Assembly (NCBI GenBank): GCA_965223005.1 | Contig: CBDCVK010000002.1 | Location: 1 to 64,000, forward strand | From: Terriglobia bacterium | GTDB lineage: Bacteria; Acidobacteriota; Terriglobia; JAJPHL01; JAPKYU01 | DNA length: 64,000 bases | Direction: 5' to 3' | In this document: in pieces, positions 1-52,710 of the stretch | Numbering within the stretch: position 1 is the first letter of the stretch | Layout: every line of letters starts with the position of its first letter | Notes under the pieces: model-generated | What the model saw: only the letters and a program-made list of their open reading frames with translations | What the model was told of the DNA's origin: nothing | Databases searched by the model: none | Translations under genes and position numbers: made by a program

Positions 1-1829
1 GAAACTGACCGCCACGAGCATGCCAGCCCGAGTCATAGTTGGTCTTGACCAGGATTGCCTCACCCCGGCCCAGGTTTTCCGACACGCGCGCCCTGTCGTA
101 CCGGAGCCATTGGAACCGGGCCCGGCGCTTGCCTTCGGCCCAGGCCACGTAGGCGGCCAGCGCCCTCCGGTCGTCAGTGGAGCGCAGCGCGGGCAACCGC
201 CGCAGCGCCCCCAGGCTCACCACCACTGCCGTTGGTCCCGCGCCGGGCACGGCGTAGATCTTGTCGCCGCGCCCGTTGTTCAACAGTTGCGGCAGTCCAG
301 CAAAGCGCTCAGGAAAGACGTAGTGATGGTAGTACTCTTGAGACGCTGCTGAGTGCACCAGCACGCGGCGGCAGCCGAGTGCGCGCGGCCACAGTTGCGC
401 CAGGCGCCGCGCCTTCTGCGGTGAGTCGCAGGAACCCAGGGCAGCTTCGCGCTGCGCCGCCAGGATCAGCGGATTGACTGCGCCTTGTGGGCTGCCACCG
501 CCAACCTGCGGAATATCCGCGAACACGTTCAGGCGTGCCCGCAGGTTCGCCGGAAACAAAGACCCGCCCGGGCGGCTGGCGGGCCAACCAATCGGTGATC
601 TGGTAGAAGAGGGTGGCGTGCGGGTCAGCCGCAAACTGGTGGCTCCAGGCGGTCCGCAGAAACAAATGCGACGCTCCTAGAGTGGCCCCCAGCGTGGCAA
701 TGATGATGGGAGCGGCCAGCACTGTCAGGCGTCGCGGCTTCGGCAGCAGTGACAGCACCAGTCCCAAGGCCAGCGCCAGCGCCATGTGGAATTCCACGCC
801 CGACCGCCACGGCTCAGAGAAGAAATCGCTTCCGGCCTGCGAGAACGCCAGGCCAGAAGCTCCGGCGAGAGCAATCCAGGCGAGCAGGAAGGCCACCACG
901 GGCGGGGTGCGCGACCACATCGCCAGACTCAGCAACACGCCGGCTGCGGCCACGGCCCCAACGGCGAACAGGCTCATCTCGCTCAGCAGCACCCGCTCGG
1001 CCAGGTGCTCGACGTACGCCAGGCTGGCTCGGGTTGCAAAAGAGCCGGCGGTCAGCCAGAAGGCGCCCAAGGTGTGGGCCGTCACCCAGATGGCCAGCGT
1101 GCGCTTGATGGCGGTCCGGTAGTCCGGGGTGCGGCCCAAGCCGACGATGCGGCCTTGCGCCACCAGCACCGCTCCCAACCCCATCGTCAGCGCCACAGTG
1201 CCCGACTGACTCGTCAGCGGCAACAGTGCGGCGGCAAACGAAGCGACGGAATAGTGGAAGAACCGAAAGTCTTCCAGCGCGCGCCAGGCAGCCAGCAGCA
1301 CCAACGGCAGCAGGGCCGCAACCGCCAGGTGCCCTGCCTCGCCGTATTCCAGCAGCGTGACGAACGGCCACGGAGCCCTCCCGTAGCGGCCGGCCAGCCC
1401 GGCCGGATCGGGGAGCAGGTAGATCGCAGAAGGCAGCACGCTGTAAGCGAGCGCGGCAACGGCGGCCCAAAGCCGGCTGCCCAGCAAATACCGCGCCAGA
1501 AAATACAGCGTCACCGGAGCCAGCGCGTAAGCCAGCCCGCTCACCAGGTGGTAGGCGCGCGCCACCGACAAGCCCGGGACCAGCCAGGCCAGCAGGGCCA
1601 CGCTGCCGGGCAGCAGGGGCGGGCCGGAGTAGTGGAAGGGAATGCCGCCGTACCACAGCGGATTCCAGGTAAAGTGCTGCTGCTGGAAGAGGCGGGCCAG
1701 CCCGATCGAGGTGTACTCAGCACTCCAGCCGCGGAGGGAAAATTCGGCAACCAGGTAAGGCCCCAGCAGAGCCAGGTTGCCGACGAACAACAATGCGGGC
1801 AGTAGGATGTCCTTGGGACGGCGCGGCAT
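1..1829 (-). CDS. Multi-pass membrane protein, 6-pyruvoyl-tetrahydropterin synthase-related / GT-C-like; frameshifted near 545, 3' end uncertain near the window edge
   Basis: ORF 309..1829 has WNPLWYGGIP and many TM segments. Removing one C at ~545 (GGC GAA [C]CTG CGG) continues as LNVFADIPQVGGG...EYYHHYVFPERF. Confidence 0.65.
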
Positions 1830-1912
1830 TTCGGCGCACCTTTAGCGCGGCAGAAGGCCCGGGTCAAGCTCTGTTTTCATCTGTAGCAAGAAGGTGCGCT
1901 GCCAGTCGGGGG

Positions 1913-1989
1913 TGGGGTGAGCGACGGGGATCGAACCCGCAACGTCCGGAGCCACAGTCCGGTGCTCTACCGATTGAGCTACGCTCACC
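1913..1989 (-). tRNA. tRNA-His (GTG)
   Basis: Reverse complement GGTGAGCGTAGCTCAATCGGTAGAGCACCGGACTGTGGCTCCGGACGTTGCGGGTTCGATCCCCGTCGCTCACCCCA: cloverleaf, GTG anticodon, G-1, encoded CCA. Confidence 0.97.
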
Positions 1990-2042
1990 GCTGGAAACTA
2001 TCGCTATCTCTCAGACTAGCACAGCGCTCCGCGCCCATCAAC

Positions 2043-2510
2043 TTAGCGTGGTTGTCCCAGACCACCCTTCGCCAGGACCTTCCCTTGCTCATCGGACAGG
2101 CGCGCGGTGAGCGGCTTGCGCAGGTTCTCCAGGCGATCCGCTGGGATCCATACCGCATCGAACGGATACGTCAGCGCCTGGGTTACCATAGTGTCCTTCG
2201 GGGGAACAGTGACCCCGACTTCGACCGTAAGGGTAGAGCCGCGCAAGCTCACTTGCGTGATCTCGATCCCGTAGCCGCCTGTGGGTTTTTCGCCGAGAGC
2301 GGCCACGATGACCACACGGTCTCCACGTCTGTCCAAGGTGATGCTTGGGGGCGCGCGGCGCACCTTGCGCACCTTTTTTGCGAGGGAGGCGCGCTCCTCT
2401 GCCGTGGCAGGCTTGAAGGGGATACCGCCGGCTCCGGATGCAGCCAGCGCCAATAGGAGCGTCAAGTTCACACAGAACATCATCACTTCCATGGTAGCCC
2501 AACGCGCCAA
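2043..2510 (-). CDS. PrcB C-terminal domain (protease complex subunit PrcB family) secreted protein
   Basis: Motifs GEKPTGGYGIEI and VTQALTYPF; signal-like N-terminus. The true start is probably a few codons downstream. Confidence 0.8.
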   Translation of the reverse strand: MARWATMEVMMFCVNLTLLLALAASGAGGIPFKPATAEERASLAKKVRKVRRAPPSITLDRRGDRVVIVAALGEKPTGGYGIEITQVSLRGSTLTVEVGVTVPPKDTMVTQALTYPFDAVWIPADRLENLRKPLTARLSDEQGKVLAKGGLGQPR

Positions 2511-2564
2511 CGGTACGGCAAGGCATTCTCAAGAGCGGTGCGAATGCAGGTTGGTTCCAAGGGC

Positions 2565-2735
2565 TCATCCACGATCGTCGCGATGTTCCAATCGCTGGTT
2601 CAGGTCCGCCAGTTGGGCCGCAGTTTCCATCAGCGCGCCCAGTTTCAGCAGCTCTATATTGGTTGGCGGGACACCCACTGTCTCAGCCGCCTGGGCGACT
2701 CGCTTCCATTCCTCACGAATTTCTTGTGCCGTCAT
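2565..2735 (-). CDS. Small hypothetical protein (56 aa), divergent from the HTH gene
   Basis: MTAQEIREEWKRVAQAAETVGVPPTNIELLKLGALMETAAQLADLNQRLEHRDDRG*, preceded by GAAGGTGAG; below the ORF-track cutoff. Confidence 0.5.
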   Translation of the reverse strand: MTAQEIREEWKRVAQAAETVGVPPTNIELLKLGALMETAAQLADLNQRLEHRDDRG

Positions 2736-2776
2736 TGTCTCACCTTCATCGCGTCATGCTCGAGTGTGCCGCTCGT

Positions 2777-2855
2777 TTCCACTCCGGCCTTCCACTCCGG
2801 CATTTCACTCTGGCCTTGCCACTCGGGCCTTCCGCCCCGGCCTTGCGCCTCGGCA
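2777..2855. repeat. Degenerate 13-14 bp tandem repeat, about 6 copies (TTCCACTCCGGCC)
   Basis: TTCCACTCCGGCC / TTCCACTCCGGCA / TTTCACTCTGGCC / TTGCCACTCGGGCC / TTCCGCCCCGGCC / TTGCGCCTCGGCA. Confidence 0.8.
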
Positions 2856-3018
2856 CCAACCTGCGCTACCCTGCGGGTTGGTCCTTTGGGTTCTTAGCAC
2901 CTTTCGAGTGCTGACAACCGCAAAGGCGTTTTCTTGGCGTATAGTAAGCTTTTCAGAATATGTTGTAAAGCTTATAATGTGCGTATTTACATTAATCATT
3001 ATGGTATAAGAAGGCCTT

Positions 3019-3411
3019 ATGCAGGAAGCCTCCCGCGAACTCGTCAAGCGTCTGAAGATGCTCAAGAATACCCTGCAGCTGACCTGGAGCGAGCTGGCGT
3101 CGCAGCTTGGCGTATCGAAAAGCTGGATCGACCAGGTCCTCTACGGCACGCCGCCCGAGGAACCCAGGCCGCATGTCCTGCGGCGGATTGAAGAACTCGA
3201 AGCCAAGATTCGGCAACCGAAGACATCCATGCAGATGCTGGAACTGGGGGATTTGAAACTCCGGGTGGCTGCCCTTGAACGACGTATGACGGAAGTCGTT
3301 GAAATTCTCAGTCGCCTGGGAACACCAGCGCCCGCTGTGAAACTGATGGAAGAAGGCCATGAACTACGGGAGCCTCCGCTGCGGGAGGAAGAGAAGCTGC
3401 CGGAGGGCTAA
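3019..3411 (+). CDS. XRE-family helix-turn-helix transcriptional regulator
   Basis: LTWSELASQLGVSKSWIDQVLYG HTH followed by a coiled coil; AT-rich palindromic upstream region. Confidence 0.75.
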   Translation: MQEASRELVKRLKMLKNTLQLTWSELASQLGVSKSWIDQVLYGTPPEEPRPHVLRRIEELEAKIRQPKTSMQMLELGDLKLRVAALERRMTEVVEILSRLGTPAPAVKLMEEGHELREPPLREEEKLPEG

Positions 3412-3475
3412 CGGTGTCGTTGCCAACCCTGTGGGGTTTAAGAGGGGGGGCGAATCGCCGTCGAGTGGAACTGGC

Positions 3476-4825
3476 CTACTCGGAGCTGAGCGGCGGTCGC
3501 CCGATGGAACTGTAGTGGAAGCCGTGGCCTCGTATGGTGGCCGGATCAAACACGTTGCGGCCGTCCACCACGATCGGGTAACGCATCAACTTCCGCACCC
3601 GGGCCAGGTCAAGCTTCCGGAACTCATCCCAATCCGTGCAGAGCACCAGGCAGTCGGATTCTTCGAGCGCGGCGTAGGCATCTTGGCAGTAAACCACCTG
3701 GGGCAGCACGCGCTGCGCGTTTTCCATGGCGCAGGGATCGTAAGCGCGCACCGAAGCGCCCTCCCGCAACAGTTCCCGGATAACGTCAAGGGCTGACGCC
3801 TGGCGAATGTCATCCGTGTCGGGTTTGAAAGCCAGGCCGAGCACGGTGACGGTCTTGTCCCTGAGGTTCCATATCGCCCCCCGGATCTTGCGTAGGAAGC
3901 GCGCCTTCTGGTCTTCATTGATGGCCTCCACCTCGCGCAGGAGGCGGAAGTCGTAACCAAGCTGCTCCGCGATCTGGTAGAAGGCCTTCAGATCTTTGGG
4001 GAAGCAAGAGCCGCCATAACCCAGGCCGGGTTGGAGAAAGGTGGCACCAATGCGGGCATCCAGTCCAATGCCGTGCGCCACATCCACAATGTCCGCTCCG
4101 GATTGCTCTGTCAGGATGCTGATGGCGTTGATGAAGGAAATCTTCATTGCCAGAAACGCGTTGGAGGCGTGTTTGATCAATTCCGCGCTTTTGATATCGG
4201 TGAGCAACAACGGCGGTGGGGAAGTGTCTCTGATTCCGGCGGCGCGGTAATAGTCTCCGGAAGTTAACGGCCGGTAGAGTTCGGCCATCAGCTGGCGCGC
4301 CTGCTCGGAGTCGGCCCCCACTACAATGCGATCCGGGTGGAAGAAATCGTTCAGGCCGCAACCCTCGCGAAGGAATTCCGGATTGGACACAAGGTCGTAG
4401 TCGCCGCCGTGGTGATTGAGGTTGATGACGCGGCGAATGTTTTCACAGGTGTTCACCGGCACGGTGCTCTTCTCCACGATCACCCGGTAGCTTGTCAGGC
4501 ACCGCCCAATGTCGCGGCACACCGCCTCGATGGCGCTCAGGTCGGCCTCGCCGTCCTGGCGGGCAGGTGTGCCCACAGCGATGAACACGATCGAGGCCTG
4601 GTTGAGTGCTGGCGGAATTTCTGTCGAGAAGTGGAGGCGCCCGGCGCCCGCATTGCGCGCCACCAGTTCTTCCAGGCCCGGTTCGTAAATCGGCAGGCGG
4701 CCCTGGCGAAGCTCGGCAATCTTGGCCGCATCGTGGTCCACCAGCGTGACTCGATGACCAATCTCGGACAGCCCCACCCCGGTGACCGATCCCACATACC
4801 CCGCGCCGATGATGGCAATCTCCAT
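3476..4825 (-). CDS. ugd: UDP-glucose 6-dehydrogenase
   Basis: GAGYVG Rossmann motif, KSTVPV, SNPEFLREG, GYGGSCFPKD, GLAFKPDTDDIR. Confidence 0.95.
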   Translation of the reverse strand: MEIAIIGAGYVGSVTGVGLSEIGHRVTLVDHDAAKIAELRQGRLPIYEPGLEELVARNAGAGRLHFSTEIPPALNQASIVFIAVGTPARQDGEADLSAIEAVCRDIGRCLTSYRVIVEKSTVPVNTCENIRRVINLNHHGGDYDLVSNPEFLREGCGLNDFFHPDRIVVGADSEQARQLMAELYRPLTSGDYYRAAGIRDTSPPPLLLTDIKSAELIKHASNAFLAMKISFINAISILTEQSGADIVDVAHGIGLDARIGATFLQPGLGYGGSCFPKDLKAFYQIAEQLGYDFRLLREVEAINEDQKARFLRKIRGAIWNLRDKTVTVLGLAFKPDTDDIRQASALDVIRELLREGASVRAYDPCAMENAQRVLPQVVYCQDAYAALEESDCLVLCTDWDEFRKLDLARVRKLMRYPIVVDGRNVFDPATIRGHGFHYSSIGRPPLSSE

Positions 4826-5064
4826 TAGAGCAGCTTTCTCCGGTTTGCTCGCCTAGCGCCTAATTCTAAACAATTCGAGGTCGGTTACCGCAACTGCCCC
4901 ATAACCTTCAGCATCACTCGCCGGCACCACGGGTCACCGGAGGTCCGGGCTGGGTAAAGAGCGCGACGCCACCCAGATGAGTTGCGCCTGGGCGGCGTGA
5001 GAAGCTGGCAGGTTAGGCTGCGGCCAGCCGGCGGTCGGCTACGGGCGCCGGCAGAATCCGTTCG

Positions 5065-6114
<1,050 letters not shown>

Positions 6115-6158
6115 GATCGGTTCTCCCTTCGGGCGGCCGGTCTGGGCGTTGGCAGGCT

Positions 6159-6200
6159 AAAAACATCGCGGCCCACCGTTGCCGGTGGGCCGCCGAGATG
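6159..6200 (-). terminator. Intrinsic terminator in the aroF leader (attenuator)
   Basis: Minus strand CATC-tcg-GCGGCCCACCG-GCAA-CGGTGGGCCGC-GATG-TTTTT, about 45 nt upstream of the aroF start. Confidence 0.85.
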
Positions 6201-6222
6201 ATGCCAAATTCCTAAGACGCAC

Positions 6223-6297
6223 TCAGCTGCACACCTGGCAGACACGCCAGTAGGAGCGGCTAAATCGAGACACGCAAAGTTGGCCTCGGAGCGTCAT
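6223..6297 (-). CDS. Putative aroF leader peptide (24 aa, [24 protein letters not shown])
   Basis: ATG lies 7 nt after a perfect TATAAT; F, Y and W codons are clustered; the ORF ends just upstream of the terminator. Confidence 0.7.
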
Positions 6298-6304
6298 TTT
6301 TTGC

Positions 6305-6334
6305 ATTATACGCAGGTCTGGGAAACTCTGTCTA
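6305..6334 (-). promoter_or_regulatory. Sigma-70 promoter of the aroF leader
   Basis: TAGACA-N18-TATAAT on the minus strand. Confidence 0.7.
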
Positions 6335-6416
6335 GAGGTTTGTGCGTGTGCGCGCACTCCGGGTTCCTGTTTGGGAAACGCACGCGGCCACTTCTTCCCT
6401 ATAGTACAATCGCCGC

Positions 6417-6556
6417 ATGGAGATTGCGGTGGGCGCCGGCCACGCGGGATTTGCTCTGACGCTGGAGATGCTCCGCGCCTGGCTGGAAACCAGCTTCGCT
6501 GGCGGGCGTCACCAGAGGCACCTCGAGAGGATCACCGAGTTAGAAAGGAACCGGGG

Positions 6557-6560
<4 letters not shown>
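6417..6560 (+). pseudogene. rpiB: Internally deleted ribose-5-phosphate isomerase B (47 aa in-frame remnant)
   Basis: [14 protein letters not shown] (RpiB N-terminus) fused to [25 protein letters not shown] (RpiB C-terminus); catalytic CGTG core absent; ATGA overlap with glyA. Confidence 0.8.
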
Positions 6561-7828
<1,268 letters not shown>

Positions 7829-7922
7829 GTCCGCGTGTGAGTCCCCAGTGTGAGTTCCGATGTAGCTCAGCCCCAGCGACTGGGACTTGCGACTTGGACC
7901 TTAGGGCCGTGGACGTTGTTTG

Positions 7923-9080
7923 ATGAATATCGCCGATGAACATCGCCCGCTGAACATCGCCATCGATGTGCGACGCCTGGCCGACTTCGGCGTCGGCACC
8001 TATATCCGCAACCTGGTGCGCACCTTATTCCACAAGGATGCAGAGAACCGTTATCTGCTGATCGGGCCGCCGGAACAGATCGAAGAGCTGGACGCTCTGC
8101 CGTCCAATTTTGAGCCCTTGGACTACACCCAGAGTGATGAATCACCCGGGAACCACTTCCGGTTCCGCTTCCTACTGCAGGAGCGAAGAGTGGATGTGCT
8201 GCATATCCCCCACATGCGCATCCCGCTGCTGGTGCCCTGCCGCTATGTCGTCACGGTTCACGACCTGGCCGATTTCCTGTTTCCCGCCGACAACGGATTC
8301 CGCAACAGCCTGCGCCTCTATTTCGTGCGGCACGGACTGCGCGGCGCGGCCCGCATCATCACCGTTTCCCGCGCCACCCACCTGGACCTGACCGAACTTT
8401 GCCGGATCCCTCCAGGAAAAATTGAGGTCGTGCACAACGCTATTGACGAGCGGTTCAGCGTTCCTACTCGTCACGACGAAAAAAAGTTGGCGCTGGAGCG
8501 CTACGGGGTCAACTACCCGTTCGTCCTTTACGCCGGCAACGTTAAGGCGCAGAAGAACCTGGTCCGTCTCATCGAAGCTTTCGCCGTGCTGAAGGGAGAG
8601 TTGCGGGCGCACCCTGTCTACGGCGACCTGAAGCTGATCCTGATCGGCGATGAGCTGGGCAAGCACCCTCACCTGCGCAGCACGGTGGTCAAGACCCGCA
8701 TCCAGCAGGATGTGCGCTTCCTGGGCTTCGTGCCGGTGGACGTGCTGCGAGTGTTCTATTCCTCAGCCGAGGTGTTCGTCTTCCCATCGCTGCACGAAGG
8801 CTTTGGCCTCCCGCCGCTGGAGGCGATGGCGCAGGGCACGCCGGTGGTGGTCTCCAATGTCTCCTCTCTGCCGGAGGTGGTGGGGAACGCGGCGGTGATG
8901 GTGAATCCTGACAACGTCTTCGACATCGCTCGCGGGGTGAAGCGCGTTCTGCTGGACGTGGACGCCCGGGAGCTGCTCCGACAGCGTGGCCTGGAGCAGG
9001 TGAAGAAATTCTCCTGGGAGCGCTCGGTCGGACGCGTTCTGGAAATTTACCGCCAGACTGCGGAACGCCGCGCCTTCTGA
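7923..9080 (+). CDS. Glycosyltransferase family 4 (group 1)
   Basis: VVTVHDL, KNLVRLIEAF, FVFPSLHEGFGLPPLEAMAQGTPVV. Confidence 0.93.
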   Translation: MNIADEHRPLNIAIDVRRLADFGVGTYIRNLVRTLFHKDAENRYLLIGPPEQIEELDALPSNFEPLDYTQSDESPGNHFRFRFLLQERRVDVLHIPHMRIPLLVPCRYVVTVHDLADFLFPADNGFRNSLRLYFVRHGLRGAARIITVSRATHLDLTELCRIPPGKIEVVHNAIDERFSVPTRHDEKKLALERYGVNYPFVLYAGNVKAQKNLVRLIEAFAVLKGELRAHPVYGDLKLILIGDELGKHPHLRSTVVKTRIQQDVRFLGFVPVDVLRVFYSSAEVFVFPSLHEGFGLPPLEAMAQGTPVVVSNVSSLPEVVGNAAVMVNPDNVFDIARGVKRVLLDVDARELLRQRGLEQVKKFSWERSVGRVLEIYRQTAERRAF

Positions 9081-9240
9081 TCGCCTTAAAATCTCTCCGC
9101 CTGGGATCGCCGCTCGGCGGGGCCGTGTCAATTCTGACGCGAGTGTTCGCCGCACCACGCCCTGGATTGCCCTAACTCCCTACAAGCTATTTCCCAGCAA
9201 TGAGTTAGCTTTTGGTCCTAGGCCTGCCCTCATCTTGGGC

Positions 9241-9846
9241 ATGATGCCCTCTGGAAGCAAGCCCATCAAGCAAGCAGCTGCGGCGAGAGCCGCGTTGGCA
9301 ATCGCCATAGCGATTCTGTCAGCAATGGAGCTCGCCAACGCTCAAAGCTCCGCCGCTCTCCCAGAACAGGAACGTCAGAGCGAGCGGCGGCTGGTGATCA
9401 ATGTCCGTGCCAGGACCCTCGAACTGTTCGAGAACGGCGAATGGGTGAAGAGCTACCCCATCGCCGTGGGCAAGCCCTCGACACCGACCCCACTCGGCAC
9501 CTTTCAAGTTTCTACCAAGGTCAAGAACCCCACCTGGTACGGGCCGAACAAGCAAGTGATCCCGCCCGGCAAGAAGAATCCGGTGGGGACGCGCTGGATG
9601 GGCTTGGATAAGAAAGGGTACGGCATCCACGGAACCAATGACCCCGATTCCATCGGGCTCGCGGCCTCCCGCGGCTGCATTCGCATGCTCAACCGCGAGG
9701 CCGAAGACCTGTTTGCCCGCTTGGAAGTTGGCGACCAGGTGGAAATCCTGGCTGAGCCGATGACGGCTGACGCCGCCACCTTGCGCGACTCGTATCGCCC
9801 AGACGGCACCGACACCGGCACTGGCGATCTGGTCGGGGGGAGCTAG
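9241..9846 (+). CDS. L,D-transpeptidase (YkuD family)
   Basis: YPIAVGK, TPTPLG, YGIHGTN, SRGCIRM; signal peptide. Confidence 0.92.
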   Translation: MMPSGSKPIKQAAAARAALAIAIAILSAMELANAQSSAALPEQERQSERRLVINVRARTLELFENGEWVKSYPIAVGKPSTPTPLGTFQVSTKVKNPTWYGPNKQVIPPGKKNPVGTRWMGLDKKGYGIHGTNDPDSIGLAASRGCIRMLNREAEDLFARLEVGDQVEILAEPMTADAATLRDSYRPDGTDTGTGDLVGGS

Positions 9847-9848
9847 CC

Positions 9849-10001
9849 ATGGAACTGGGCTTCACAGATACGCTGTACGTCTCCTTGGCGGCTGTAGTGG
9901 GTTTCCAGATGGCACTGGCCGCCGACTACTTCCTACTGAAGCTCCTGCTCCGAATTATGCGCTCCGGGGTTCCGCGGGAGCATCCCGACAGCAATCTGTG
10001 A
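9849..10001 (+). CDS. Small membrane protein (50 aa)
   Basis: MELGFTDTLYVSLAAVVGFQMALAADYFLLKLLLRIMR..., starts 2 nt after the LDT stop with GGGGAG upstream. Confidence 0.55.
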   Translation: MELGFTDTLYVSLAAVVGFQMALAADYFLLKLLLRIMRSGVPREHPDSNL

Positions 10002-10090
10002 AATTTCTCAATCACACCTGTCCGCGAGTCAGGGCTTCGCGTCCATACCTGGCCGTTTTCCCGAATCTGACACTGCGGTAATATCAGTGC

Positions 10091-11356
10091 ATGCTCCCGC
10101 TTGTTTTGCTTCTGGCATTAAGGCTGCCCCAAACGGAAGTCGACGCCTTTGCTCGAAGGGTGGCGCAGGCTCTAGCTCAAAGCCAGGCGCCGGGTCCGCA
10201 CAGTCGCGTTCAGTTACAGGTGGAGGACGCTGGAGGGGTCGGCGCTGCCGGGCAACTCGCTCGCGCCTTGCATGAAGCGCTCCTACTTGAAGGATTTGAG
10301 CCGACGGCCGCGGGGAAATTCGGCCATCGGGTGTTTGCCTATCTGAGCCTGCGCCGCGGCCGGCCACTGGCTGCGGTACGAATCCTCGGGGAAGGGGGTG
10401 GCAAAGAGGTAGCGGTGCTGTTTGCCGAATTCTCACCCGGCGCGGCGCCAGAACCGGTTCAACCGGAAGGCCCCCCGGTGGCGATCCGCACCCGAACGCT
10501 GCTGGCCACCGAGCTTCCGGTGCTGGACCTGGAGGCCGATCGGAAGGGAAACCTCTTTGTCCTGCACCCGGACCGCTTGGTTGTCTTCGACTTGAACGCC
10601 GTCGGTCTACCGGGAAAACCCCCAGTAAAAGCAGCGGTCGGGCTCGACACGGGAGCCAAGCGTTTGCGCGACCCGCTGGTGCGGTTGCTGACGCACGACA
10701 GCCCTCGCCGGTTGGAGTTGTATTCCGCCGCCGAGACGTTGGCGCCAGCGCCTCCAAAGATAATCGAGGGCTACACCCTCAGGAGCTTGGAAGCTTCGGC
10801 CCCGCTACGGGTGTCGCATCCATGGCGTGCCGTCTCCCTTCAGTTCCGGCTCGCCGCCGGCAGGAACTTCCTTTACGGCGGTCCGGTGACGAAGCTGTAC
10901 GGTTTGGCTCCGGTGCGCAGCCCGCTCCGCGCGCACTGGGTCCTGTTGGACGGCACCGGACGTTTGGTGCTGACCGACGCCAGCTTGCGGCCGATCAGCA
11001 TCGCTTCCGGTCCTTTCGGAGGCGATGTCGCCTCGGCGGCCCTGCCCTGCACCGGGACCCTCGTGATGGCGGCCGGCCCCGAGCCGCATCCGCTCCGCGA
11101 CCGCATCAGTGTCCTTCGTTTAGAGAATGACCGTCTGCGGCCCCTCACCGGCCTGGCGATGGAAGGCGCCGTCCGTCGTCTGAAAACTCTCCCTCCTGTC
11201 GGCAAAGCGCGGCGAATCCTCGCTGTGGTTCAAAACAGCGGTGAGGTCCAAACCGGCGCTGTGGCTCAAACCGACGCTGTGGCTCAAACCGACGCTGTGG
11301 CTCAAGCCAACCAGGCCACCCGCATCGAAGAAATCGAATTGAGGTGTTCCCCGTGA
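10091..11356 (+). CDS. Secreted hypothetical protein (possible beta-propeller-like)
   Basis: Signal-like N-terminus; 421 aa; GTGA overlap with the next gene; 6-aa repeats near the C-terminus. Confidence 0.65.
   Translation: MLPLVLLLALRLPQTEVDAFARRVAQALAQSQAPGPHSRVQLQVEDAGGVGAAGQLARALHEALLLEGFEPTAAGKFGHRVFAYLSLRRGRPLAAVRILGEGGGKEVAVLFAEFSPGAAPEPVQPEGPPVAIRTRTLLATELPVLDLEADRKGNLFVLHPDRLVVFDLNAVGLPGKPPVKAAVGLDTGAKRLRDPLVRLLTHDSPRRLELYSAAETLAPAPPKIIEGYTLRSLEASAPLRVSHPWRAVSLQFRLAAGRNFLYGGPVTKLYGLAPVRSPLRAHWVLLDGTGRLVLTDASLRPISIASGPFGGDVASAALPCTGTLVMAAGPEPHPLRDRISVLRLENDRLRPLTGLAMEGAVRRLKTLPPVGKARRILAVVQNSGEVQTGAVAQTDAVAQTDAVAQANQATRIEEIELRCSP
11221..11310 (+). repeat. 18-bp in-frame tandem repeat x5 (AVAQTD-like)
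   Basis: Units of CGCTGTGGCTCAAACCGA. Confidence 0.85.
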
Positions 11357-12864
11357 GGCTGCGGCCACAGGGCAGGCGTCGGCTTCGTGTTCGGCAAGCC
11401 TTTTTGATTTGCGTCTGCATTTTCGGCGGGGCGCTGCAGTTGTCCAGCGCGGCCCGGCCGCGCTACGGCGGCACTCTTCGGCTGGGTTTTTACCAAACAG
11501 CGGAGACCTACGACCCTACGGCGGCCACCACGCTGCCCGAACGCCTCCTTGCCCGCTCTCTGTACGAGACCCTGGTAGCGTTTGATGATCGGGAAGGCGA
11601 TGATCGGGAGGGAGACGATCGGGAAGGCAGAGCCATGGGTGCTGCGTCGGGGCTGGCCGCTCGTTGGCATGCGGAATTGGGGGGCAAGCGCTGGGTCTTT
11701 CAATTGCGCCCCGGCATCCGGTTCCACAATGGAACGCCTCTGAGCGCGGCAGCGGTGCAGGCCTCTCTGGAACGGGCAGTGGCCCGAGCGCAGACAGCTA
11801 GCGCAGCCTACCTGCGCCGCGCGCGATTCGTGTGCGCATCGCCTTCCCCAAGCCGCCTGACCTGCAACTTGGCCAAGCCCATAGCGGCGCTACCGAAGCT
11901 ATTGGCCGATCCGGCCTTGGCCATCGCCGAGTCCGACGGCGCCGGTACCGGCCCCTGGAAGCTGGCCTCCTGGTCGCTGGGAACTCGTGCCCGACTGGAA
12001 GCATTCGACGAGTACCGGCAGGGCCGGCCCTTCCTGGACGCAATTGAAGCAAGATTCGGAACCGACCCGCGGCGGCAGCGGGTCGATTTCGAACTGAAGC
12101 GCGTGGACGTGCTTGTAGCAATGCCCACCGAGGCTCGCGCCCCAGGCCAGGTGCGCGCTGCGCTTCCTTCCAACCTGTTGCTCCTGGGCTTTTCCCCTGC
12201 CACGGCGTTCTTGCGCGGAGGCGAGCAGGGCGGGCTTGCTGCCCGCCAGGCGCTGCTGGCCGTATTGGACCGGGAAGCGCTCGCCGACCTGCTGCCGCCC
12301 GGCCGGGCCCGTGCGGCAAAGGCATTCTTGCCGGGTTGGGTGAGCGGCTACGACTTTCTGCTTGGGTTCGGAGCCTGGCGAAAGCCTGGGACGGCCCAGC
12401 GGCTACTGCAGCCCGCCGGCGCGCTACCTCGGGGACCGTTCCGGTTGATCTATGACGCGGCCGATCCGGTAGCAGAGCTGGCTGCTTCGCGGCGCGCATT
12501 GGACTTGCGCGGCATGGGGATGGAGTTGCGGCCTCAGGGCCTCGCTGGCGCCGGCTTCCGACAGGCCCGGCAAGCGGGCCGCTATGACCTGTTCCTGGAA
12601 TCGGTGTCCCTGCGTGTAGAGCACCCCGCGGCTGCTCTGGCCGACCTGCTGTCTCGCCATAGCCCGGAGCGGGTTCCGATGGAACTGTTCCAGCCGGCCC
12701 GCTCGATTGAACTCCAGTACCGGCTGGAGAGAGCGGCGCTGGAGGATTTACGTCTGATCCCTCTGCTTCATTACCGCGACCAGTACAGTTTCCAGCCCGG
12801 CCTGGAACAGGTGCGCCTGAGGGAAAATGGTATGCTGGACCTTGCCAATGCTTGGAAGCGATAA
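11353..12864 (+). CDS. Family 5 extracellular solute-binding protein (OppA/SgrR-like)
   Basis: PRYGGTLR, LYETLV, WVFQLRPGIRFHNGTPL, GTGPWKL, GRPFLDAIE. Confidence 0.85.
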   Translation: MRLRPQGRRRLRVRQAFLICVCIFGGALQLSSAARPRYGGTLRLGFYQTAETYDPTAATTLPERLLARSLYETLVAFDDREGDDREGDDREGRAMGAASGLAARWHAELGGKRWVFQLRPGIRFHNGTPLSAAAVQASLERAVARAQTASAAYLRRARFVCASPSPSRLTCNLAKPIAALPKLLADPALAIAESDGAGTGPWKLASWSLGTRARLEAFDEYRQGRPFLDAIEARFGTDPRRQRVDFELKRVDVLVAMPTEARAPGQVRAALPSNLLLLGFSPATAFLRGGEQGGLAARQALLAVLDREALADLLPPGRARAAKAFLPGWVSGYDFLLGFGAWRKPGTAQRLLQPAGALPRGPFRLIYDAADPVAELAASRRALDLRGMGMELRPQGLAGAGFRQARQAGRYDLFLESVSLRVEHPAAALADLLSRHSPERVPMELFQPARSIELQYRLERAALEDLRLIPLLHYRDQYSFQPGLEQVRLRENGMLDLANAWKR

Positions 12865-12949
12865 GGCGCGTCGGCCTCATGCCATCGGGAAGCCGAAGCT
12901 CCCCTAGCGGATGCCCGTGGTCCGCGCGATCCCCGGATCAGCGCCAACC

Positions 12950-14714
12950 ATGAACTTGAGTTTCCGCTGGAAGTTGCTGTTGGCATTCGGCGTCACCACC
13001 GTGGTGGCGGTGGCGGTCGTGGCATTCGTGGCCACCCGGCTGGTGGGGGCCTCCTTCCTCCGCGGCGATCGGGAACGCATCGAAGGGGTACTGGGGCAGG
13101 CGCGGGCGAGCATCCAGCGCCGCGGCGAGCTGGCGGGCCGGCGTGTGACTGCGGCCTCGGAAAGCGAAGCCGCCACCCGGATGGCCATCGCACTGAATCA
13201 GTCGCCGCAGGGAACACCGGCCCCAGGCGTTTTCCTGACGGAAGCAACCACGCTGGCACGCGCTCACGAACTGGACCTGCTGCAACTGATCGCACACGAC
13301 GGAACAATCCTCTCTTCGGCCCAGTGGCAGGCGCGCGCCGGCTACCGCGAACCAGGACTGGCGCGACTGGTCTCGCGCAAGACCCCCTTTGTGCGCCTGG
13401 AGGAATTGCCGTCGGGGCAGGTGCTGGCAGTCGAAGTGGTGCGTGATCTCAGCCTCGGGGCGCGTAAGCTGTACCTGATCGGTGGGTACCCTCTGGACGA
13501 GTCCTTCGTCAGCGAACTCAGCCAGGCAGGCTTGGAACATGTGGTTCTGTTCCGCCTGGCCGGGCAGGGGCAACTGGTGCCCATGTCCGGGGCGTCCCGG
13601 CGGGAAGCTGTCGGCGAGCAGCAAAGTCGACCGGGGTCCGGCGTCGGGGAAGCACTGCGTCTCGTCGCAGAACGTGTGGTCCTTTCTGGCGCGGAGTACC
13701 GGGGCGAACTGGGGCGCGCGGAAGGCGTGGCTGCGCCCTCCAGCGTCGCGGGCACCCCGATTCGCGACGTTGCTGGAACCACGCTCGGCGCCCTGGTGGT
13801 TACCGTATCGGGGGCCGAACGGGTCCAGGTGATCCGCTCACTGTATTGGGCGGCCGTGGTGGCCGGGGCGTTAGGGTTGCTGGCTGCCATGGTGCTGACT
13901 GCGTGCCTCCAAGGAGGTGGCAGGCGGCAATCTGGAGTACCGCATCCGGCCGCGCGGAGATGACGAGATGGCCCGTCTCTCAAGCGCATTCAACCAGATG
14001 GCCTCTAGCCTGCGAGAACATCGTGAGCGTCTGGTGCAAGCCGAGCGAGTGGCCGCTTGGCGCGAGCTGGCCCGCCGCCTGGCCCACGAGTTGAAGAACC
14101 CGTTGTTCCCTCTCCAGCTTTCCATAGAGAACCTGCGCCGCGCCCGCCAGACGGATCCGGCAAACTTCAACGAAGTCTTTGAGGAGGGAACGACCACGCT
14201 TCTGGCCGAACTGGAGGAGCTAAGACAGATTGTGGCGCGCTTCAATGATTTTGCCCGAATGCCGCGGCCGGAGCCGGAGCAGACTGACTTGAGGGGCCTG
14301 CTTGAAAAGACGGCGCGCCTGTACGAAGCGCGCATCCGTCAGGAGAGCATCGCGCTGGATTTACAGCTGGCCCACGAACCCGTAGTGGCCCACGCCGATC
14401 CCTACCTGGTGAGCCAGGCCCTGGGGAACCTGGTATTGAATGCGCTGGACGCGATGCCCGGTGGCGGCCGCTTAGAATTATGTGCCTTCGCCCACAACGG
14501 CCGCGCCGTCGTGGAAGTCGCCGACACCGGCCGGGGACTTACCGAGGACGAGCAGCAGCGCGTCTTTAGCCCCTATTACACCACCAAGCAGCACGGCACA
14601 GGACTGGGATTGGCCATCGTGCAGTCGGTAGTAGCCGACCACGGCGGCCGCATCACGGTGGAAAGCGCCCCTCAGAAAGGGACTCGCTTCCGCATCGAAC
14701 TCCCCTCATCATGA
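12950..14714 (+). CDS. HAMP sensor histidine kinase (NtrY-like), disrupted near 13905
   Basis: TM1-periplasmic-TM2 in one frame; HAMP remainder, AWRELARRLAHELKNPL, NALDAM, DTGRG, TTKQHGTGLGL in another frame. Confidence 0.85.
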
Positions 14715-16102
14715 AATTGAAAATCCTGATCGTGGATGACGACCCCAACACGCTGGCGCAGCTGGCGCGGGCGTTTCGCATGGAGGGGTTGGAAGCGGTG
14801 GTCGCCGAATCGGCCGAAACGGCGCTTCAGCGACTGCGCGAGAACGGCGTGGATGCTGTAGTTTCCGACGTGGTGATGCCCGGGACCAGCGGGCTGGAAC
14901 TGCTGGAAGCGATCCGCCGCGAGCGCCCGGACCTGCCGGGCGTGATGATCTCCGGCCAGGCCACCATCGAAATCGCGGTGCGCGCCACCCGCTCCGGCGC
15001 CATTGATTTCCTGGAAAAGCCGGTCTCGGCGCAAAAGTTGCTGGTGACGGTGGAGAACGCGGTGCGCCTGCGCCGCCTGGAAGAGGAGAACGTCGAACTC
15101 CGTCGCCAGATGGGCGACGGCGAGCTGCTGTTTCGCAGCCCGGCAATGAAGCAAGTCGCCTCCCAGGTGGAGCTGGTGGCGCCCACCGACTCAACTGTCT
15201 GCATCCTGGGCGAAACCGGGGTAGGGAAGGAGCTGGTGGCTCGCGCCATCCACCGCGCCAGCCCGCGCCGCGACGGTCCCTTCATTCAGCTCAACTGCGC
15301 CGCCGTGCCGGCCGAACTCATCGAAAGTGAGTTGTTCGGCCACGAGAAGGGTTCCTTCACCGGGGCCGTCAGCCGACACATCGGCAAGTTCGAGGCGGCC
15401 AACGGGGGAACCCTGTTCCTGGACGAGATCGGCGACATGCCTGCGCCGATGCAGGCCAAGCTGCTGCGCGTGCTGCAGGAGCGCCAGTTCGAACGCATCG
15501 GTTCCCATCGGATGATTTCCGCCGACGTCCGCGTGGTGACTGCCACTAACAAGGATTTGCGCCGCCTGATCGCCGCCGGCCAGTTCCGCGAAGACCTCCT
15601 CCACCGCATCTACGTCTTCCCCATCGCTGTGCCGCCGCTACGCGAACGCCTGGAGGACGTACCACTGCTGGCCGAGCACTTCGCCCGCGAGATCGCCCTG
15701 AGGAACAACTGGAAGGAGGCGCGCATCGCGCCCGAGGCCCTAGAGCGGCTGGTCCGCTACGGCTGGCCGGGCAATGTGCGGGAACTGCGGAACGTGGTGG
15801 AGCGGGCGTTGATTCTGGCGCGCGGCGGCGAAATCGCTGGCCCGCTGGTGGATGAGTTGCTAGGCACAGCGCCCGGTGCCTCCGGTCGAGCGTCCAGTCG
15901 CGACTCCGGCCAATTTGGCTTCCGCGGCCGCCCCTTGAAAGAAACCATGGAAGAGGTTGAGCGGCAGGTGGTGCTGGAGGCGCTGGAACAGCACGGCTAC
16001 CAGATCGCGCCGACCGCTCGCACCTTGGGCTTGGAGCGCAGCCACTTTTACAAGAAATGCAGGCAGCTCAGCATCGACCTCCGCACGCTCCGGTCGGAGT
16101 GA
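14711..16102 (+). CDS. Sigma-54-dependent response regulator (NtrC/NtrX/AtoC family)
   Basis: Receiver domain, GETGVGKE, ESELFGHEKGSFTGA, LFLDEIGD, WPGNVRELRN, Fis-type HTH. Confidence 0.95.
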   Translation: MKLKILIVDDDPNTLAQLARAFRMEGLEAVVAESAETALQRLRENGVDAVVSDVVMPGTSGLELLEAIRRERPDLPGVMISGQATIEIAVRATRSGAIDFLEKPVSAQKLLVTVENAVRLRRLEEENVELRRQMGDGELLFRSPAMKQVASQVELVAPTDSTVCILGETGVGKELVARAIHRASPRRDGPFIQLNCAAVPAELIESELFGHEKGSFTGAVSRHIGKFEAANGGTLFLDEIGDMPAPMQAKLLRVLQERQFERIGSHRMISADVRVVTATNKDLRRLIAAGQFREDLLHRIYVFPIAVPPLRERLEDVPLLAEHFAREIALRNNWKEARIAPEALERLVRYGWPGNVRELRNVVERALILARGGEIAGPLVDELLGTAPGASGRASSRDSGQFGFRGRPLKETMEEVERQVVLEALEQHGYQIAPTARTLGLERSHFYKKCRQLSIDLRTLRSE

Positions 16103-16207
16103 GATTGTCGGCTCCGGGACAGTGACTCGCTTGGTTATCCGCGCCCGGTGGGGCAAGGGCTGCGTTGACATTTTTAACGTTCTGCCCGTATTGTGTTTGT
16201 AGATCGA

Positions 16208-16756
16208 ATGCAGGAGCAAACCTACGCTATTGTCGTCTACCTGCAGGGTCCTCTGGCCCAATTTGTAAACCGCCTCCGGGAGCAACTCAACCCCGAATAC
16301 GCAGGCAAGGGTGCCCACGTAACGGTAATTCCGCCTCGCCCGCTGGTCATTTCCGAGGAGGCGGCTGCGGAAGAGGCACGCGCGCAGTGCGCCGGGTGGG
16401 AACCTTTCGAGCTGGAAGTCGGCAACATACAGACCTTTCTCCCCGTTAATCACGTTGTCTACCTGGGGCTTAGGCAGGGGGCCGACCAATTGCGCCGCCT
16501 GCACCAGACCTTAAACCGCGGATACCTGGCCTGCCCGGAGCCGGTCGAGTTCGTTCCACACATCACCATCGCCCAGGATCTGAGCGAGCAACGCATCCTG
16601 GATGTGTTCGCCCAGGTTTCCAGCGGATTTGCCGCCTATGCTGGACCCCGTCGCCATCCGGTAAGGACGCTGACCTTCGTGCGCCAGAACGATGCGGGCG
16701 ATTGGATCGACTTGGCTGAACTTCAACTTGGGCGTGCCGGTGTCTTGACACGGTAG
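16208..16756 (+). CDS. 2H phosphoesterase / 2'-5' RNA ligase family protein
   Basis: Two HxT motifs (AHVTV, PHITI); upstream TTGACA-N18-TATTGT. Confidence 0.85.
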   Translation: MQEQTYAIVVYLQGPLAQFVNRLREQLNPEYAGKGAHVTVIPPRPLVISEEAAAEEARAQCAGWEPFELEVGNIQTFLPVNHVVYLGLRQGADQLRRLHQTLNRGYLACPEPVEFVPHITIAQDLSEQRILDVFAQVSSGFAAYAGPRRHPVRTLTFVRQNDAGDWIDLAELQLGRAGVLTR

Positions 16757-16874
16757 GATGACCGCGTACCACCCCGTTCCACACCACATATAGACAGCCA
16801 GACCCTAGATTCCTCAACCAGTCGTAGCCGGGCTATCCCCATGGCCTGGGTTACGGAGAGGGCCAAGATTTCCC

Positions 16875-16930
16875 TTGACAGTTGTGGGTGGAAGGGGTAA
16901 AAAGTGGGCAGAAGTGGAGATAAGTGGAGA
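16875..16930 (+). promoter_or_regulatory. dcw promoter with MraZ-binding direct repeats
   Basis: TTGACA-N17-TAAAAA with GTGG(G/A) at 16884, 16904, 16914 and 16924 (10-bp phase). Confidence 0.8.
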
Positions 16931-17054
16931 AGCATGAACGGGGTGGCCCAGAACTCTCCTGTAAGTGGGACATCCGGGTCAGGGTCAAGCTTGTCGTCGG
17001 CTCGGAGGATGCACGGCCAAAGTGGCTGAGGGAAGCGCGGCTGAGGGAAGCGAA

Positions 17055-17237
17055 ATGACACCAGTGAGCGAGCTACGGCAGGAGATGGCATGGGTTGCGG
17101 CCACCGACGCGGCCAACCAGAACATGCGAGCGCACGGGCGCATCGTTTGGGACGCAGATGACTACAACGTGGCTACCGTGGAATTGGACCGGCTCTTGGA
17201 AGGCGAGAGGGAGTCCGAGCAGTGCTTCGACGAGTGA
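17055..17237 (+). CDS. Small hypothetical protein (60 aa) upstream of mraZ
   Basis: MTPVSELRQEMAWVAATDAANQNMRAHGRIVWDADDYNVATVELDRLL..., with a GAGGGAAG RBS. Confidence 0.6.
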   Translation: MTPVSELRQEMAWVAATDAANQNMRAHGRIVWDADDYNVATVELDRLLEGERESEQCFDE

Positions 17238-17300
17238 AGCTGCGGCCTGACGGGCCGCATTGGCTGACGGTCCCAGGCAGTTTTGAAACGGGCATGACCG

Positions 17301-17744
17301 ATGCTTCGAGGCAACTATCCGGCGCGAGTGGACGAGAAAGGGCGGCTGAAGGTTCCCGCCCCCTTCAAAGACGACCTGGAAGAGAACTACGGAAAACATT
17401 TTTATATCACCAGCCTGGACGGTCAGTACGTTCGCATTTATCCCCTGGAAGAGTGGAACAAGTTGGAAGAGAAGCTCCAGGCGGCTTCTTCGTTCAACCG
17501 CACGCGCCGCAAGTTCCTGGACCGGACCAACTACTTTGGCCAGCTGGTGGAGATGGACAAGCAGGGCCGAGTGCTGATTCCCGCCGTTTTGCGGGAAGAG
17601 GCCGAGATGAAAGGCGATGTGGCGGTGCTCGGCAACCTGGCCTTCCTGGAAGTGTGGAATCGCGAGCGCTTCGTGAAGGAGAGGATCGAGCAGAACCCGA
17701 TTACGTCTGAAGACGAGGGGCTGCTGGAGCAGTTGGGGATTTAA
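17301..17744 (+). CDS. mraZ: Division/cell wall cluster repressor MraZ
   Basis: Duplicated DEKGRL / DKQGRV motifs; position ahead of rsmH. Confidence 0.96.
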   Translation: MLRGNYPARVDEKGRLKVPAPFKDDLEENYGKHFYITSLDGQYVRIYPLEEWNKLEEKLQAASSFNRTRRKFLDRTNYFGQLVEMDKQGRVLIPAVLREEAEMKGDVAVLGNLAFLEVWNRERFVKERIEQNPITSEDEGLLEQLGI

Positions 17745-17747
17745 GGA

Positions 17748-18704: not shown

Positions 18705-18710
18705 GGCTCC

Positions 18711-19226
18711 ATGGCAGATGCATTTCGGTTCCCGAACCTACCCCCCCCGACCGGGCGGCGTCTTCCGCAATGCGTCGTTCGAGCTGACGCTTTCTCCCTC
18801 CCACAGAAGATTGACAACTCACGGCTGGTCAAGGTGGCCGATCCGCGGGAGCGGCGCGCGCAGCACCGCCTGGTGCTGGTCAGCCTGCTGCTGTCGGCCG
18901 CCATCCTGGCCTCCGCCTGCCAGCGATTCGCGATCATCCGGAGCGGCTACCGCCTGGAGGAGCTGAAGGGGCAGCGCGAGCAACTACTGGAAGCCAACCG
19001 GCAACTGCACCTGGAAGAAGCGTCGCTCCGGAACCCGGAGCGAGTGGATGCCATTGCCCGCGCGCAGCTCGGTTTCGCCACGCCGACGCCCAGCCAGATG
19101 CGGCCTCTGGAGCCACTGCCGGACGGCCCGGACGGAGCGGTGTTCGCCGCCGTGCATCCCCCGCCTCTTTCCCAGTCCGTCGGCGCCCAGTCGGTCGGGG
19201 CCGCGCTTCCGACCGTTGTTCCCTAA
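18711..19226 (+). CDS. ftsL: Cell division protein FtsL
   Basis: Single TM, coiled coil, ASLRNPERVDAIARAQLG; lies between rsmH and the PBP gene. Confidence 0.85.
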   Translation: MADAFRFPNLPPPTGRRLPQCVVRADAFSLPQKIDNSRLVKVADPRERRAQHRLVLVSLLLSAAILASACQRFAIIRSGYRLEELKGQREQLLEANRQLHLEEASLRNPERVDAIARAQLGFATPTPSQMRPLEPLPDGPDGAVFAAVHPPPLSQSVGAQSVGAALPTVVP

Positions 19227-19235
19227 GCGAAGCCC

Positions 19236-34763: not shown

Positions 34764-35029
34764 CGTTCTCCCTTCCTTCTCCAGGGCACGCGACGTAGAG
34801 TCCCGGCGGCGTACACCGGATGCGAAAGAGCTCCTGCTCTCGCTCGGTAGGCCAGAATAGCACCCCCAGCAGGCTGCGGTGACATCCCGGGGCGACTTTT
34901 GTCGCTGAAACGCCCGGGCCGGTTCTTGCCGGTGGAATGGAAGGCCGCTTTTTGCGTTTGGAACGCAAGGAAGGATATCGTTCGAGTCCAGCGCTTCGCC
35001 TGTAGTAGCCTATGCTTTCGAGCCTGAAC

Positions 35030-52607: not shown

Positions 52608-52710
52608 GTCCAACTCGCTGGAGCAAAGTGCGCACGGAGTCGGTTCTGTATTATCGGTTGGAGTCAAGTTCGTGATGTAAGTTTCAAGACCCTGAGGCTT
52701 GGACACACTT

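Follow-up and report, generated by a model that had tools for sequence, protein, structure and literature searches.

A candidate leader-peptide attenuator upstream of the DAHP synthase gene of a Terriglobia bacterium, and similar leaders in other Acidobacteriota

Results

Layout of the aroF upstream region

The window analyzed here is a 64,000-nucleotide (nt) stretch of a Terriglobia bacterium genome (contig CBDCVK010000002.1, positions 1 to 64,000), and the element under study lies on its minus strand at positions 6334 to 6159, ahead of aroF, the gene for DAHP synthase (3-deoxy-7-phosphoheptulonate synthase). The aroF product matched NCBIfam NF006421 at 498.9 bits, and the scores for NF006421 and TIGR01361 were both above cut-offs. 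An initial annotation, made from the sequence, had proposed that the element is a leaderless attenuator reading phenylalanine (Phe, F), tyrosine (Tyr, Y) and tryptophan (Trp, W) codons, and the coordinates and sequence features that it gave were all found on the minus strand between 6334 and 6159. The intergenic region is 442 nt long and is bounded on its far side by glyA. Because glyA is divergent from aroF, the terminator described below sits in the 5′ region of aroF and not at the end of a gene; a role as the end of glyA was ruled out, as glyA is transcribed in the opposite direction. The features of the locus, in the direction of aroF transcription, are as follows.

6557..7828, plus strand: glyA, serine hydroxymethyltransferase, divergent from aroF (Pfam PF00464, 546.5 bits)
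6329..6334, minus strand: −35-like hexamer TAGACA (5 of 6 consensus matches, 18-nt spacer to the −10 hexamer)
6305..6310, minus strand: −10 hexamer TATAAT, 7 nt ahead of the leader ATG
6223..6297, minus strand: leader open reading frame (ORF), 24 codons plus TGA (ATG 6297-6295, TGA 6225-6223)
6262..6267, minus strand: in-frame CGA-UUU codon pair (Arg11-Phe12), seen in the sequence and kept in relatives
6247..6252, minus strand: Tyr16-Trp17 codons UAC UGG, overlapping the 5′ strand of the small hairpin
6235..6250, minus strand: predicted small hairpin on the Trp codon (segment 1:2, anti-antiterminator), 6250-6246 with 6239-6235 in minimum free energy (MFE) folds
6220..6238, minus strand: segment 2, predicted antiterminator strand, starting at codon 20 and reaching 3 nt beyond the stop codon (16 base pairs [bp] with 6200-6182)
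6182..6200, minus strand: segment 3, terminator 5′ arm, from folds
6164..6178, minus strand: segment 4, terminator 3′ arm, from folds
6159..6163, minus strand: U5 tract, seen in the sequence
6123..6127, minus strand: Shine-Dalgarno (SD)-like sequence GGGAG of aroF
5065..6114, minus strand: aroF, DAHP synthase with an N-terminal ferredoxin-like domain, 349 amino acids (Pfam PF00793 and PF18152)

The promoter-like site, TAGACA-N18-TATAAT, matched the consensus at 11 of 12 positions and was the best of 6 such sites in window positions 1 to 20000. A scan of positions 5900 to 6800 indicated this single promoter-like site, placed the terminator between it and aroF, and revealed no second promoter-like site between the terminator and aroF. 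Within the leader ORF the aromatic codons are Phe12 (6264-6262), Tyr16 (6252-6250) and Trp17 (6249-6247), and an in-frame GTG at codon 9 (6273-6271) would yield a 16-codon version with the same regulatory codons.

The terminator hairpin (6200-6164) begins 22 nt past the TGA. Its core (6193-6168) consists of 11 pairs, 10 of them G-C, around a GCAA loop, and the U5 tract begins 4 nt past this core. Four extension pairs across a 3-nt bulge (6200-6197 with 6167-6164) bring the stem, then 15 bp long, up to the T run, and the extended stem was predicted by folding at about −28.5 kcal/mol. The hairpin was the strongest of 13 terminator-like sites in positions 1 to 20000, and it lies 112 nt from the promoter-like site on the same strand. 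Its sequence occurs once in the window, which rules out a repeated element. Between the U5 tract and the aroF ATG there are 44 nt, including GGGAG.

An Rfam scan of positions 5900 to 6800 with E values up to 10 gave no match to T-box, Trp, Phe or other amino-acid leaders or to riboswitches; Rfam scanning recovered a T-box in a related locus (L039), which served as the positive control. The description in the initial annotation was thus borne out in its parts: the promoter with the ATG 7 nt on, the ORF of 24 codons with the translation quoted there, one Phe, one Tyr and one Trp codon within six codons (codons 12, 16 and 17), and the 11-bp GC stem with its GCAA loop and U5 ahead of aroF. We conclude that aroF is preceded by a promoter-like site, a short ORF with three aromatic codons and a terminator-like hairpin, all on one strand.

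Alternative folds of the leader

Folding predicted that segment 2 could pair with segment 3 in a 16-bp antiterminator helix (6238-6220 with 6200-6182, −21.2 kcal/mol). The small hairpin of 5 bp would compete for the same RNA, as its 3′ strand doubles as the start of the antiterminator strand. The initial annotation had proposed pairing between the region of the leader stop codon and the terminator 5′ arm; that pairing is present as the lower half of the 16-bp helix, and its strength is within the range of chance (see below).

A translating ribosome covers about −15 to +13 nt around the A site, and this footprint was masked in the folds. When transcripts were cut before segment 4 and a ribosome was placed on F12, Y16 or W17, the 16-bp 2:3 helix was the MFE structure, and the antiterminator strand was free with the ribosome at any of the window's aromatic codons. 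When the ribosome was placed on the UGA, its footprint covered segment 2 wholly (18 of 18 nt), such that the antiterminator could not form. In the MFE structure predicted for the leader without a ribosome, 6250-6246 paired with 6239-6235 and further leader stretches paired with segment 2, sequestering it. The masked folds of the window copy therefore behave as predicted by the trp/pheA-type attenuation logic invoked in the initial annotation. We conclude that the element at 6334-6159 on the minus strand probably attenuates transcription of the DAHP synthase gene through a ribosome translating the leader peptide, a reading for which the comparative data below are decisive.

In the mechanism that we infer from this layout, the start of transcription, the translation and stalling steps, the separate responses to Phe, Tyr and Trp, and any part played by CGA are all proposals. 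It would run as follows. The first transcribed nucleotide would be the A of the leader AUG or the one preceding it, and the 24-codon ORF would be translated without a 5′ leader. With Phe-, Tyr- and Trp-tRNA ample, the ribosome would reach the UGA with its footprint on segment 2 (6238-6220); with segment 2 masked, segment 3 would pair with segment 4, the terminator would form, and RNA polymerase would halt at U5, 44 nt before aroF. Under shortage, the ribosome would stall at UUU12 (after the slowly read CGA), UAC16 or UGG17, melting the small hairpin on the Trp codon and freeing segment 2. Segment 2 would then pair with segment 3 while segment 4 is still to be synthesized, the terminator would fail to form, and aroF would be transcribed. 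The geometry inclines us toward a leaderless start of the ORF, and a response of this particular copy to all three amino acids is proposed tentatively.

Aromatic leaders upstream of related aroF genes

To collect relatives, genome contigs were scanned with the window DAHP synthase, and the best 80 of 598 confirmed stretches, at 53 to 70% identity, were kept. The top relatives were all titled as Acidobacteriota lineages. Sense ORFs with at least 6 F/Y/W codons in 12 were present in 25 of 81 upstream regions, compared to 2 of 81 on the antisense strand and 0.8 of 81 in dinucleotide shuffles. When the threshold was lowered to at least 5 in 12, the numbers for the 81 regions were 33 sense, 4 antisense and 5.0 shuffled. 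Conservation of aromatic codons in orthologous leaders was what the initial annotation had made its proposal depend on, and the enrichment at the higher threshold is favorable to it.

An aromatic-rich ORF followed by a hairpin and a T run shortly before the gene was found at 26 loci among the best 80 of 598 (L001, L003-L005, L007, L009-L016, L020-L022, L025, L027, L029, L030, L032, L033, L036-L038 and L050), of which L030 has T runs only 3 long. The automatic ORF picks were replaced by inspected ORFs where necessary: those of L013 and L022 were mis-assigned, and the pick in L018 was the end of an upstream gene. The 26 leaders are 14 to 42 codons long and 17 to 41% aromatic, with 85 F, 54 Y and 34 W in 633 residues (27%). 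All three residues were present in 22 of the 26 by automatic pick and in 23 with the L013 ORF corrected; W is missing from L027 and L033, and Y from L038. The peptide sequences vary except at aromatic and Arg codons, and synonymous codons are exchanged among them (UUU 55, UUC 23; UAU 23, UAC 29). Rfam at the gathering score, applied to 40 loci including all 26 leader loci, matched only the T-box of L039 and tRNAs.

Twenty-five of the 26 loci were titled as Acidobacteriota lineages or "Ca. Acidoferrum." The class 2 leader (see below) of L032 is nearly like those of Terriglobales loci, and this locus is titled Ca. Aquilonibacter, which belongs to Vulcanimicrobiota in the NCBI taxonomy; either a binning or labeling problem or gene transfer is possible. 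An F/Y/W-rich short ORF and a terminator before the gene were also seen in Planctomycetota-titled loci (L051, L061 and L065), in Clostridia (L056, L064 and L072) and in Limnocylindrales (L073), and the Clostridia leaders have SD-like words ahead of the ORF. This distribution suggests that the leader arrangement originated, or has spread, far outside Acidobacteriota.

Some relatives have other arrangements. The Bryobacterales loci L002 and L008 lack a terminator and have a TATACT box 6 nt before the aroF ATG, from which aroF itself may be leaderless in both. L008 also contains, at 2423-2500, a leader-like W/F/Y run with CGA-UUU that is in frame with aroF and lies 78 nt upstream of the aligned start. 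At the Acidobacteriota loci L018, L019 and L026, a long upstream ORF ends about 16 to 90 nt from aroF with no leader or terminator, and the gene is probably transcribed with its upstream neighbor. TAG/GAG-rich repeats about 70 to 200 nt upstream of the gene, followed by a terminator, were observed in L028 (Heliorestis) and L063 (a Bacillota metagenome-assembled genome [MAG]); they may be repeats bound by a TRAP-like protein.

Structure and leaderless geometry among the relatives

The terminators of the 26 loci fall into two classes. Class 1 has a nearly invariant CCCAC...GUGGG core and comprises 18 loci (L001, L003-L005, L007, L009-L016, L020-L022, L029 and L050); class 2 has a different G+C-rich stem and comprises 8 loci. 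In class 1, the sequence of the terminator 3′ arm recurs next to the stop codon, on one side or the other, and this second copy can pair with the 5′ arm as segment 2; segment 2 has a further possible partner, segment 1, near the beginning of the ORF. The 18-sequence class 1 alignment had the terminator 98.1% paired, with an outer pair that was AU in 8 sequences and GC in 8, and the 1:2 helix 71.7% paired, with one pair that was AU in 7, UG in 6 and CG in 2; 7 of the 18 sequences have no 1:2 helix in the aligned columns. Covariation in class 1 was 0.201 compared to 0.158 in column shuffles, 1 of 500 of which reached it, and slid controls were all lower, with the caution that kinship inflates such figures. 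By eye, the class 1 hairpin from the last UGG codon (window 6250-6235) appears to keep its pairing although its sequence differs from locus to locus.

With a ribosome at the stop codon, half or more of the best partner of the terminator 5′ arm was masked in 16 of 24 leaders. The 6 class 2 leaders examined have this partner 22 to 45 nt inside the ORF, and L011 and L014 are exceptions to masking by the stop codon. Stalling at one or more aromatic codons left the partner free in 24 of 24 leaders, and stalling at each of the aromatic codons did so in 15 of 24. Terminator strength ranged from −11 to −25 kcal/mol in the relatives, compared to −28.4 kcal/mol in the window.

Eighteen of 24 leaders, that of the window included (TATAAT, 7 nt), have a TANNNT hexamer ending 6 to 11 nt ahead of their start codon, and three of the 6 leaders without it have a box ending in ATACT. 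None of the 18 leaders with the box, the window among them, had an SD-like word at −16 to −4, compared to 23 of 24 aroF starts. Leaderless translation, as first proposed for the window copy, is thereby supported as a conserved geometry.

The CGA-UUU codon pair

The in-frame CGA-UUU pair is found in 17 of 24 leaders, that of the window and those of 16 related loci (e.g., L003, L005, L007, L025 and L036), and the 24 leaders contain 20 Arg-Phe codon pairs in all. Because of the kinship among the leaders, the 17 cannot be counted as independent, but the flanking codons differ. Among the 23 aroF genes next to leaders, CGA accounts for 11.2% of Arg codons and UUU for 33.8% of Phe codons, and the figures for the long ORFs of the window are 10.6% and 34.6%, with CGA-UUU at 1 of 33 Arg-Phe pairs. 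At the nucleotide level, the word CGATTT was present in 26 of 81 sense upstream regions versus 6 of 81 antisense ones. Inspection of the relatives' alignments by eye found no conserved pairing partner that would explain the pair.

A Salmonella his-leader assay, as described in passages of PMC4046918, indicates that CGA is slowly read and de-attenuates. By analogy, CGA before UUU may act as a slow codon that sensitizes the ribosome to stalling. A broader proposal is that the leaders constitute a phylum-wide, unannotated family that is leaderless and integrates Phe-, Tyr- and Trp-tRNA supply at the entry step, with CGA as the sensitizer and a single Phe codon, such as the one in the window, sufficient; taken as a whole, we regard this proposal as doubtful.

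Membership of the window copy and chance levels

The landmarks of the relatives occur in the window in the same order: a −10 box 6 to 11 nt ahead of the start without an SD sequence, CGA-UUU, an antiterminator strand at the stop codon, and the CCCAC...GUGGG core with a U run. The terminator stem of the window is kept relative to theirs by two double changes (columns 164/174 and 165/173). In pairwise global alignment, the window leader outscored 198 or more of 200 shuffles with 5 of 23 relatives, namely L050 (z 6.0), L004, L003, L011 and L021. RNAalifold on the 19-sequence alignment recovered the terminator only, the other helices being out of register in the MAFFT alignment.

A number of results weigh against the attenuator reading, and several of them concern whether the window copy belongs with its relatives. 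A covariance model of the 18 class 1 relatives, with the window left out, gave no match at the element when the whole window was searched with default filters. Switching the filters off brought up the terminator stem and nothing more (6171-6192; E 0.032 in 2 kb, 10.5 bits), and an nhmmer profile of the same 18-sequence alignment gave no match at the element. Eighteen of the 23 pairwise alignments were no better than shuffles. Only 3 of the 24 codons of the window leader are aromatic (12.5%), which is the lowest of 27 leaders and short of the 17 to 41% in class 1 and the other relatives, and its score of 3 F/Y/W in 12 codons is not unusual in the enrichment test. Moreover, the closest Bryobacterales-titled aroF relatives, L006 and L008 (70% and 69% identity), have no clear leader ORF. 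Given the model and profile misses and the 18 weak alignments, homology is not established. The window copy has the same architecture as the relatives, and its landmarks suggest that it probably shares descent with them.

Other adverse results concern the antiterminator and the fold. Pairing with segment 3 of antiterminator grade was reached by 197 of 6000 random 22-mers of the window (3.3%) and by 319 of 1500 60-mers (21%), and 4 of 27 leader regions of other classes paired with window segment 3 as well or better. Segment 3 is G+C-rich and matched by random 22-mers and 60-mers, and therefore the antiterminator alone is not beyond chance. A leader's own partner beat every other-class partner in 12 of 28 leaders, a comparison that we take as moderate support for the antiterminator. 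At equilibrium, the full transcript formed the terminator (−28 to −29 kcal/mol) for every ribosome position. Read-through must therefore rest on cotranscriptional kinetics, and the states were separated by truncated transcripts only, not by equilibrium folding of the full leader.

As to the remaining chance levels, F, Y and W codons fell within 6 codons in 3 of 241 window ATG-initiated ORFs of 15 to 40 codons (1.2%), and the fold of the whole leader had a z score of −2.04 versus shuffles. Shuffles were expected to yield 0.4 promoter-like and 0.7 terminator-like matches per 900 nt. We conclude that the window locus, taken singly, is suggestive and no more.

Other features of the window

A second member of Pfam DAHP_synth_1 lies in the window at 35012-35869 on the plus strand. 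It was ruled out as a second DAHP synthase by its match to NF003543 (392.4 bits), which identifies it as the KDO8P synthase gene kdsA. Positions 50340 to 61988 contain a mobile-element cluster consisting of a phage-type integrase, two rve integrase-core transposases, a DDE transposase and a Mutator-family transposase.

Discussion

Alternative explanations

The window element could be a decayed attenuator, one that has lost most of its regulatory codons and is now a constitutive partial terminator or structured 5′ region, with regulation left to feedback inhibition of the enzyme. Such decay would fit an aromatic content that is the lowest of 27 leaders, a leader part that the profile models of the relatives did not recover, a terminator much stronger than theirs (−28.4 versus −11 to −25 kcal/mol), and entire loss of the attenuator in the Bryobacterales relatives L002 and L008. 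We nevertheless consider decay unlikely, as the promoter, start, frame, CGA-UUU pair, Tyr-Trp codons, stop codon over segment 2 and terminator are all intact, and as the three regulatory codons equal in number the Phe-Tyr-Phe of the Corynebacterium glutamicum leader, which published passages describe as responsive to Phe limitation. A different possibility is that the switch responds not to the ribosome but to some other factor, for instance a metabolite, uncharged tRNA or a protein that binds the RNA, and that the short ORF is incidental. The Firmicutes MAG L039 does have a T-box before the same gene, and the window antiterminator exists independently of the ORF. What is conserved, however, is a sense-strand, F/Y/W-rich frame with synonymous variation, the stop codon is positioned over the antiterminator strand, and Rfam gave no match either in the window (E up to 10) or at the 26 loci (gathering score), all of which makes a nonribosomal sensor very unlikely.

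We also think it highly improbable that the element is a separate small gene, whose transcript of about 139 nt would act in trans as a small RNA or encode a functional 24-amino-acid protein, alone or alongside attenuation. The promoter-to-terminator unit is indeed complete, and the attenuator RNA and leader peptide of Sinorhizobium trpL are reported to act in trans, but the position directly ahead of aroF is kept in 26 loci, the peptides vary outside aromatic and Arg codons, and there is no second promoter-like site between the terminator and aroF. Finally, a promoter-like site, a short ORF and a hairpin might have come together by chance in a 442-nt divergent region. The promoter and terminator scans match in shuffles too (0.4 and 0.7 per 900 nt), and the antiterminator is not significant alone. 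Against coincidence, the best promoter-like and the strongest terminator-like sites of 20 kb lie 112 nt apart on one strand, an F, Y and W cluster occurs in 1.2% of small ORFs, and the same arrangement precedes aroF in 26 other loci, such that we give chance hardly any credence. Ribosome-mediated attenuation is the explanation that we retain.

Significance

The window element and the 26 related loci provide a concrete and testable example of a candidate attenuator in an abundant and poorly cultured soil phylum, and the step regulated would be the committed step of aromatic amino-acid synthesis. The leader would be a natural case of one ORF that mixes codons for three end products, and of an attenuator ORF apparently translated without a 5′ leader. 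The conserved rare-codon pair CGA-UUU could serve in tests of how codon context tunes attenuators. As for annotation, Rfam does not cover these short ORFs and terminators, and a covariance model or an ORF rule could be added. Leader-peptide attenuation is textbook knowledge and an aroF precedent is known, so the understanding of regulation is unchanged. We consider the interest moderate, in that a sizeable unannotated family is opened in an understudied phylum, together with the CGA-UUU pair.

A literature search found no account of aromatic leader peptides before DAHP synthase in Acidobacteriota, most subscription journals being outside the search. The initial annotation knew of no characterization of the arrangement in this phylum. 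That much agrees with the search, and the novelty is lower than it assumed, as a C. glutamicum aroF leader peptide has already been described (see below). Naville and Gautheret (PMC2965389) noted that hardly any predicted attenuators in Acidobacteria had a function assigned to them, and the text of an Actinobacteria survey (PMC1262725) contains neither aroF nor DAHP.

Comparison with known systems

Like enterobacterial trpL and pheL, the element has a leader ORF and is predicted to combine a 1:2 hairpin with a candidate 2:3 antiterminator and a 3:4 terminator followed by a U tract, and its stop codon lies where a terminating ribosome would mask segment 2. The trpL and pheL leaders each respond to a single amino acid, whose codon is repeated in a run, and their translation begins from an SD sequence. 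The window element differs in that its codons are for three amino acids, in that translation apparently begins at the very 5′ end of the RNA, and in that it would control the common entry step rather than a terminal branch. Another comparison is with L039, a locus of a Firmicutes MAG, where a T-box (2158-2416; RF00230, 111.9 bits) stands ahead of this DAHP synthase gene. That T-box has in common with the window element the gene, the terminator/antiterminator output and the signal class (aminoacyl-tRNA supply), but a T-box binds uncharged tRNA directly and without translation, and the window has no T-box match at E values up to 10.

Leaderless regulatory ORFs that sense amino-acid supply have been described in mycobacteria, where, according to bioRxiv 10.1101/834739, leaderless polycysteine short ORFs stand as the first cistron and act as cysteine-responsive attenuators; the amino acid, the phylum and the genes differ from those considered here. 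Closest in gene context is aroR-aroF of C. glutamicum, in which, as in the window, a short ORF with aromatic codons lies directly upstream of the DAHP synthase gene. Its leader peptide, first predicted in PMC4046766, contains Phe-Tyr-Phe, and passages of PMC11802643 (citing Neshat et al. 2014) describe stalling there as raising operon transcription, with a response to Phe limitation and no effect of Tyr supply. aroR-aroF belongs to another phylum, and these passages report no Trp codon in it. The Acidobacteriota leaders are set apart from aroR-aroF, as it is described there, by the presence of F, Y and W together (22 to 23 of 26) and by the conserved CGA-UUU pair.

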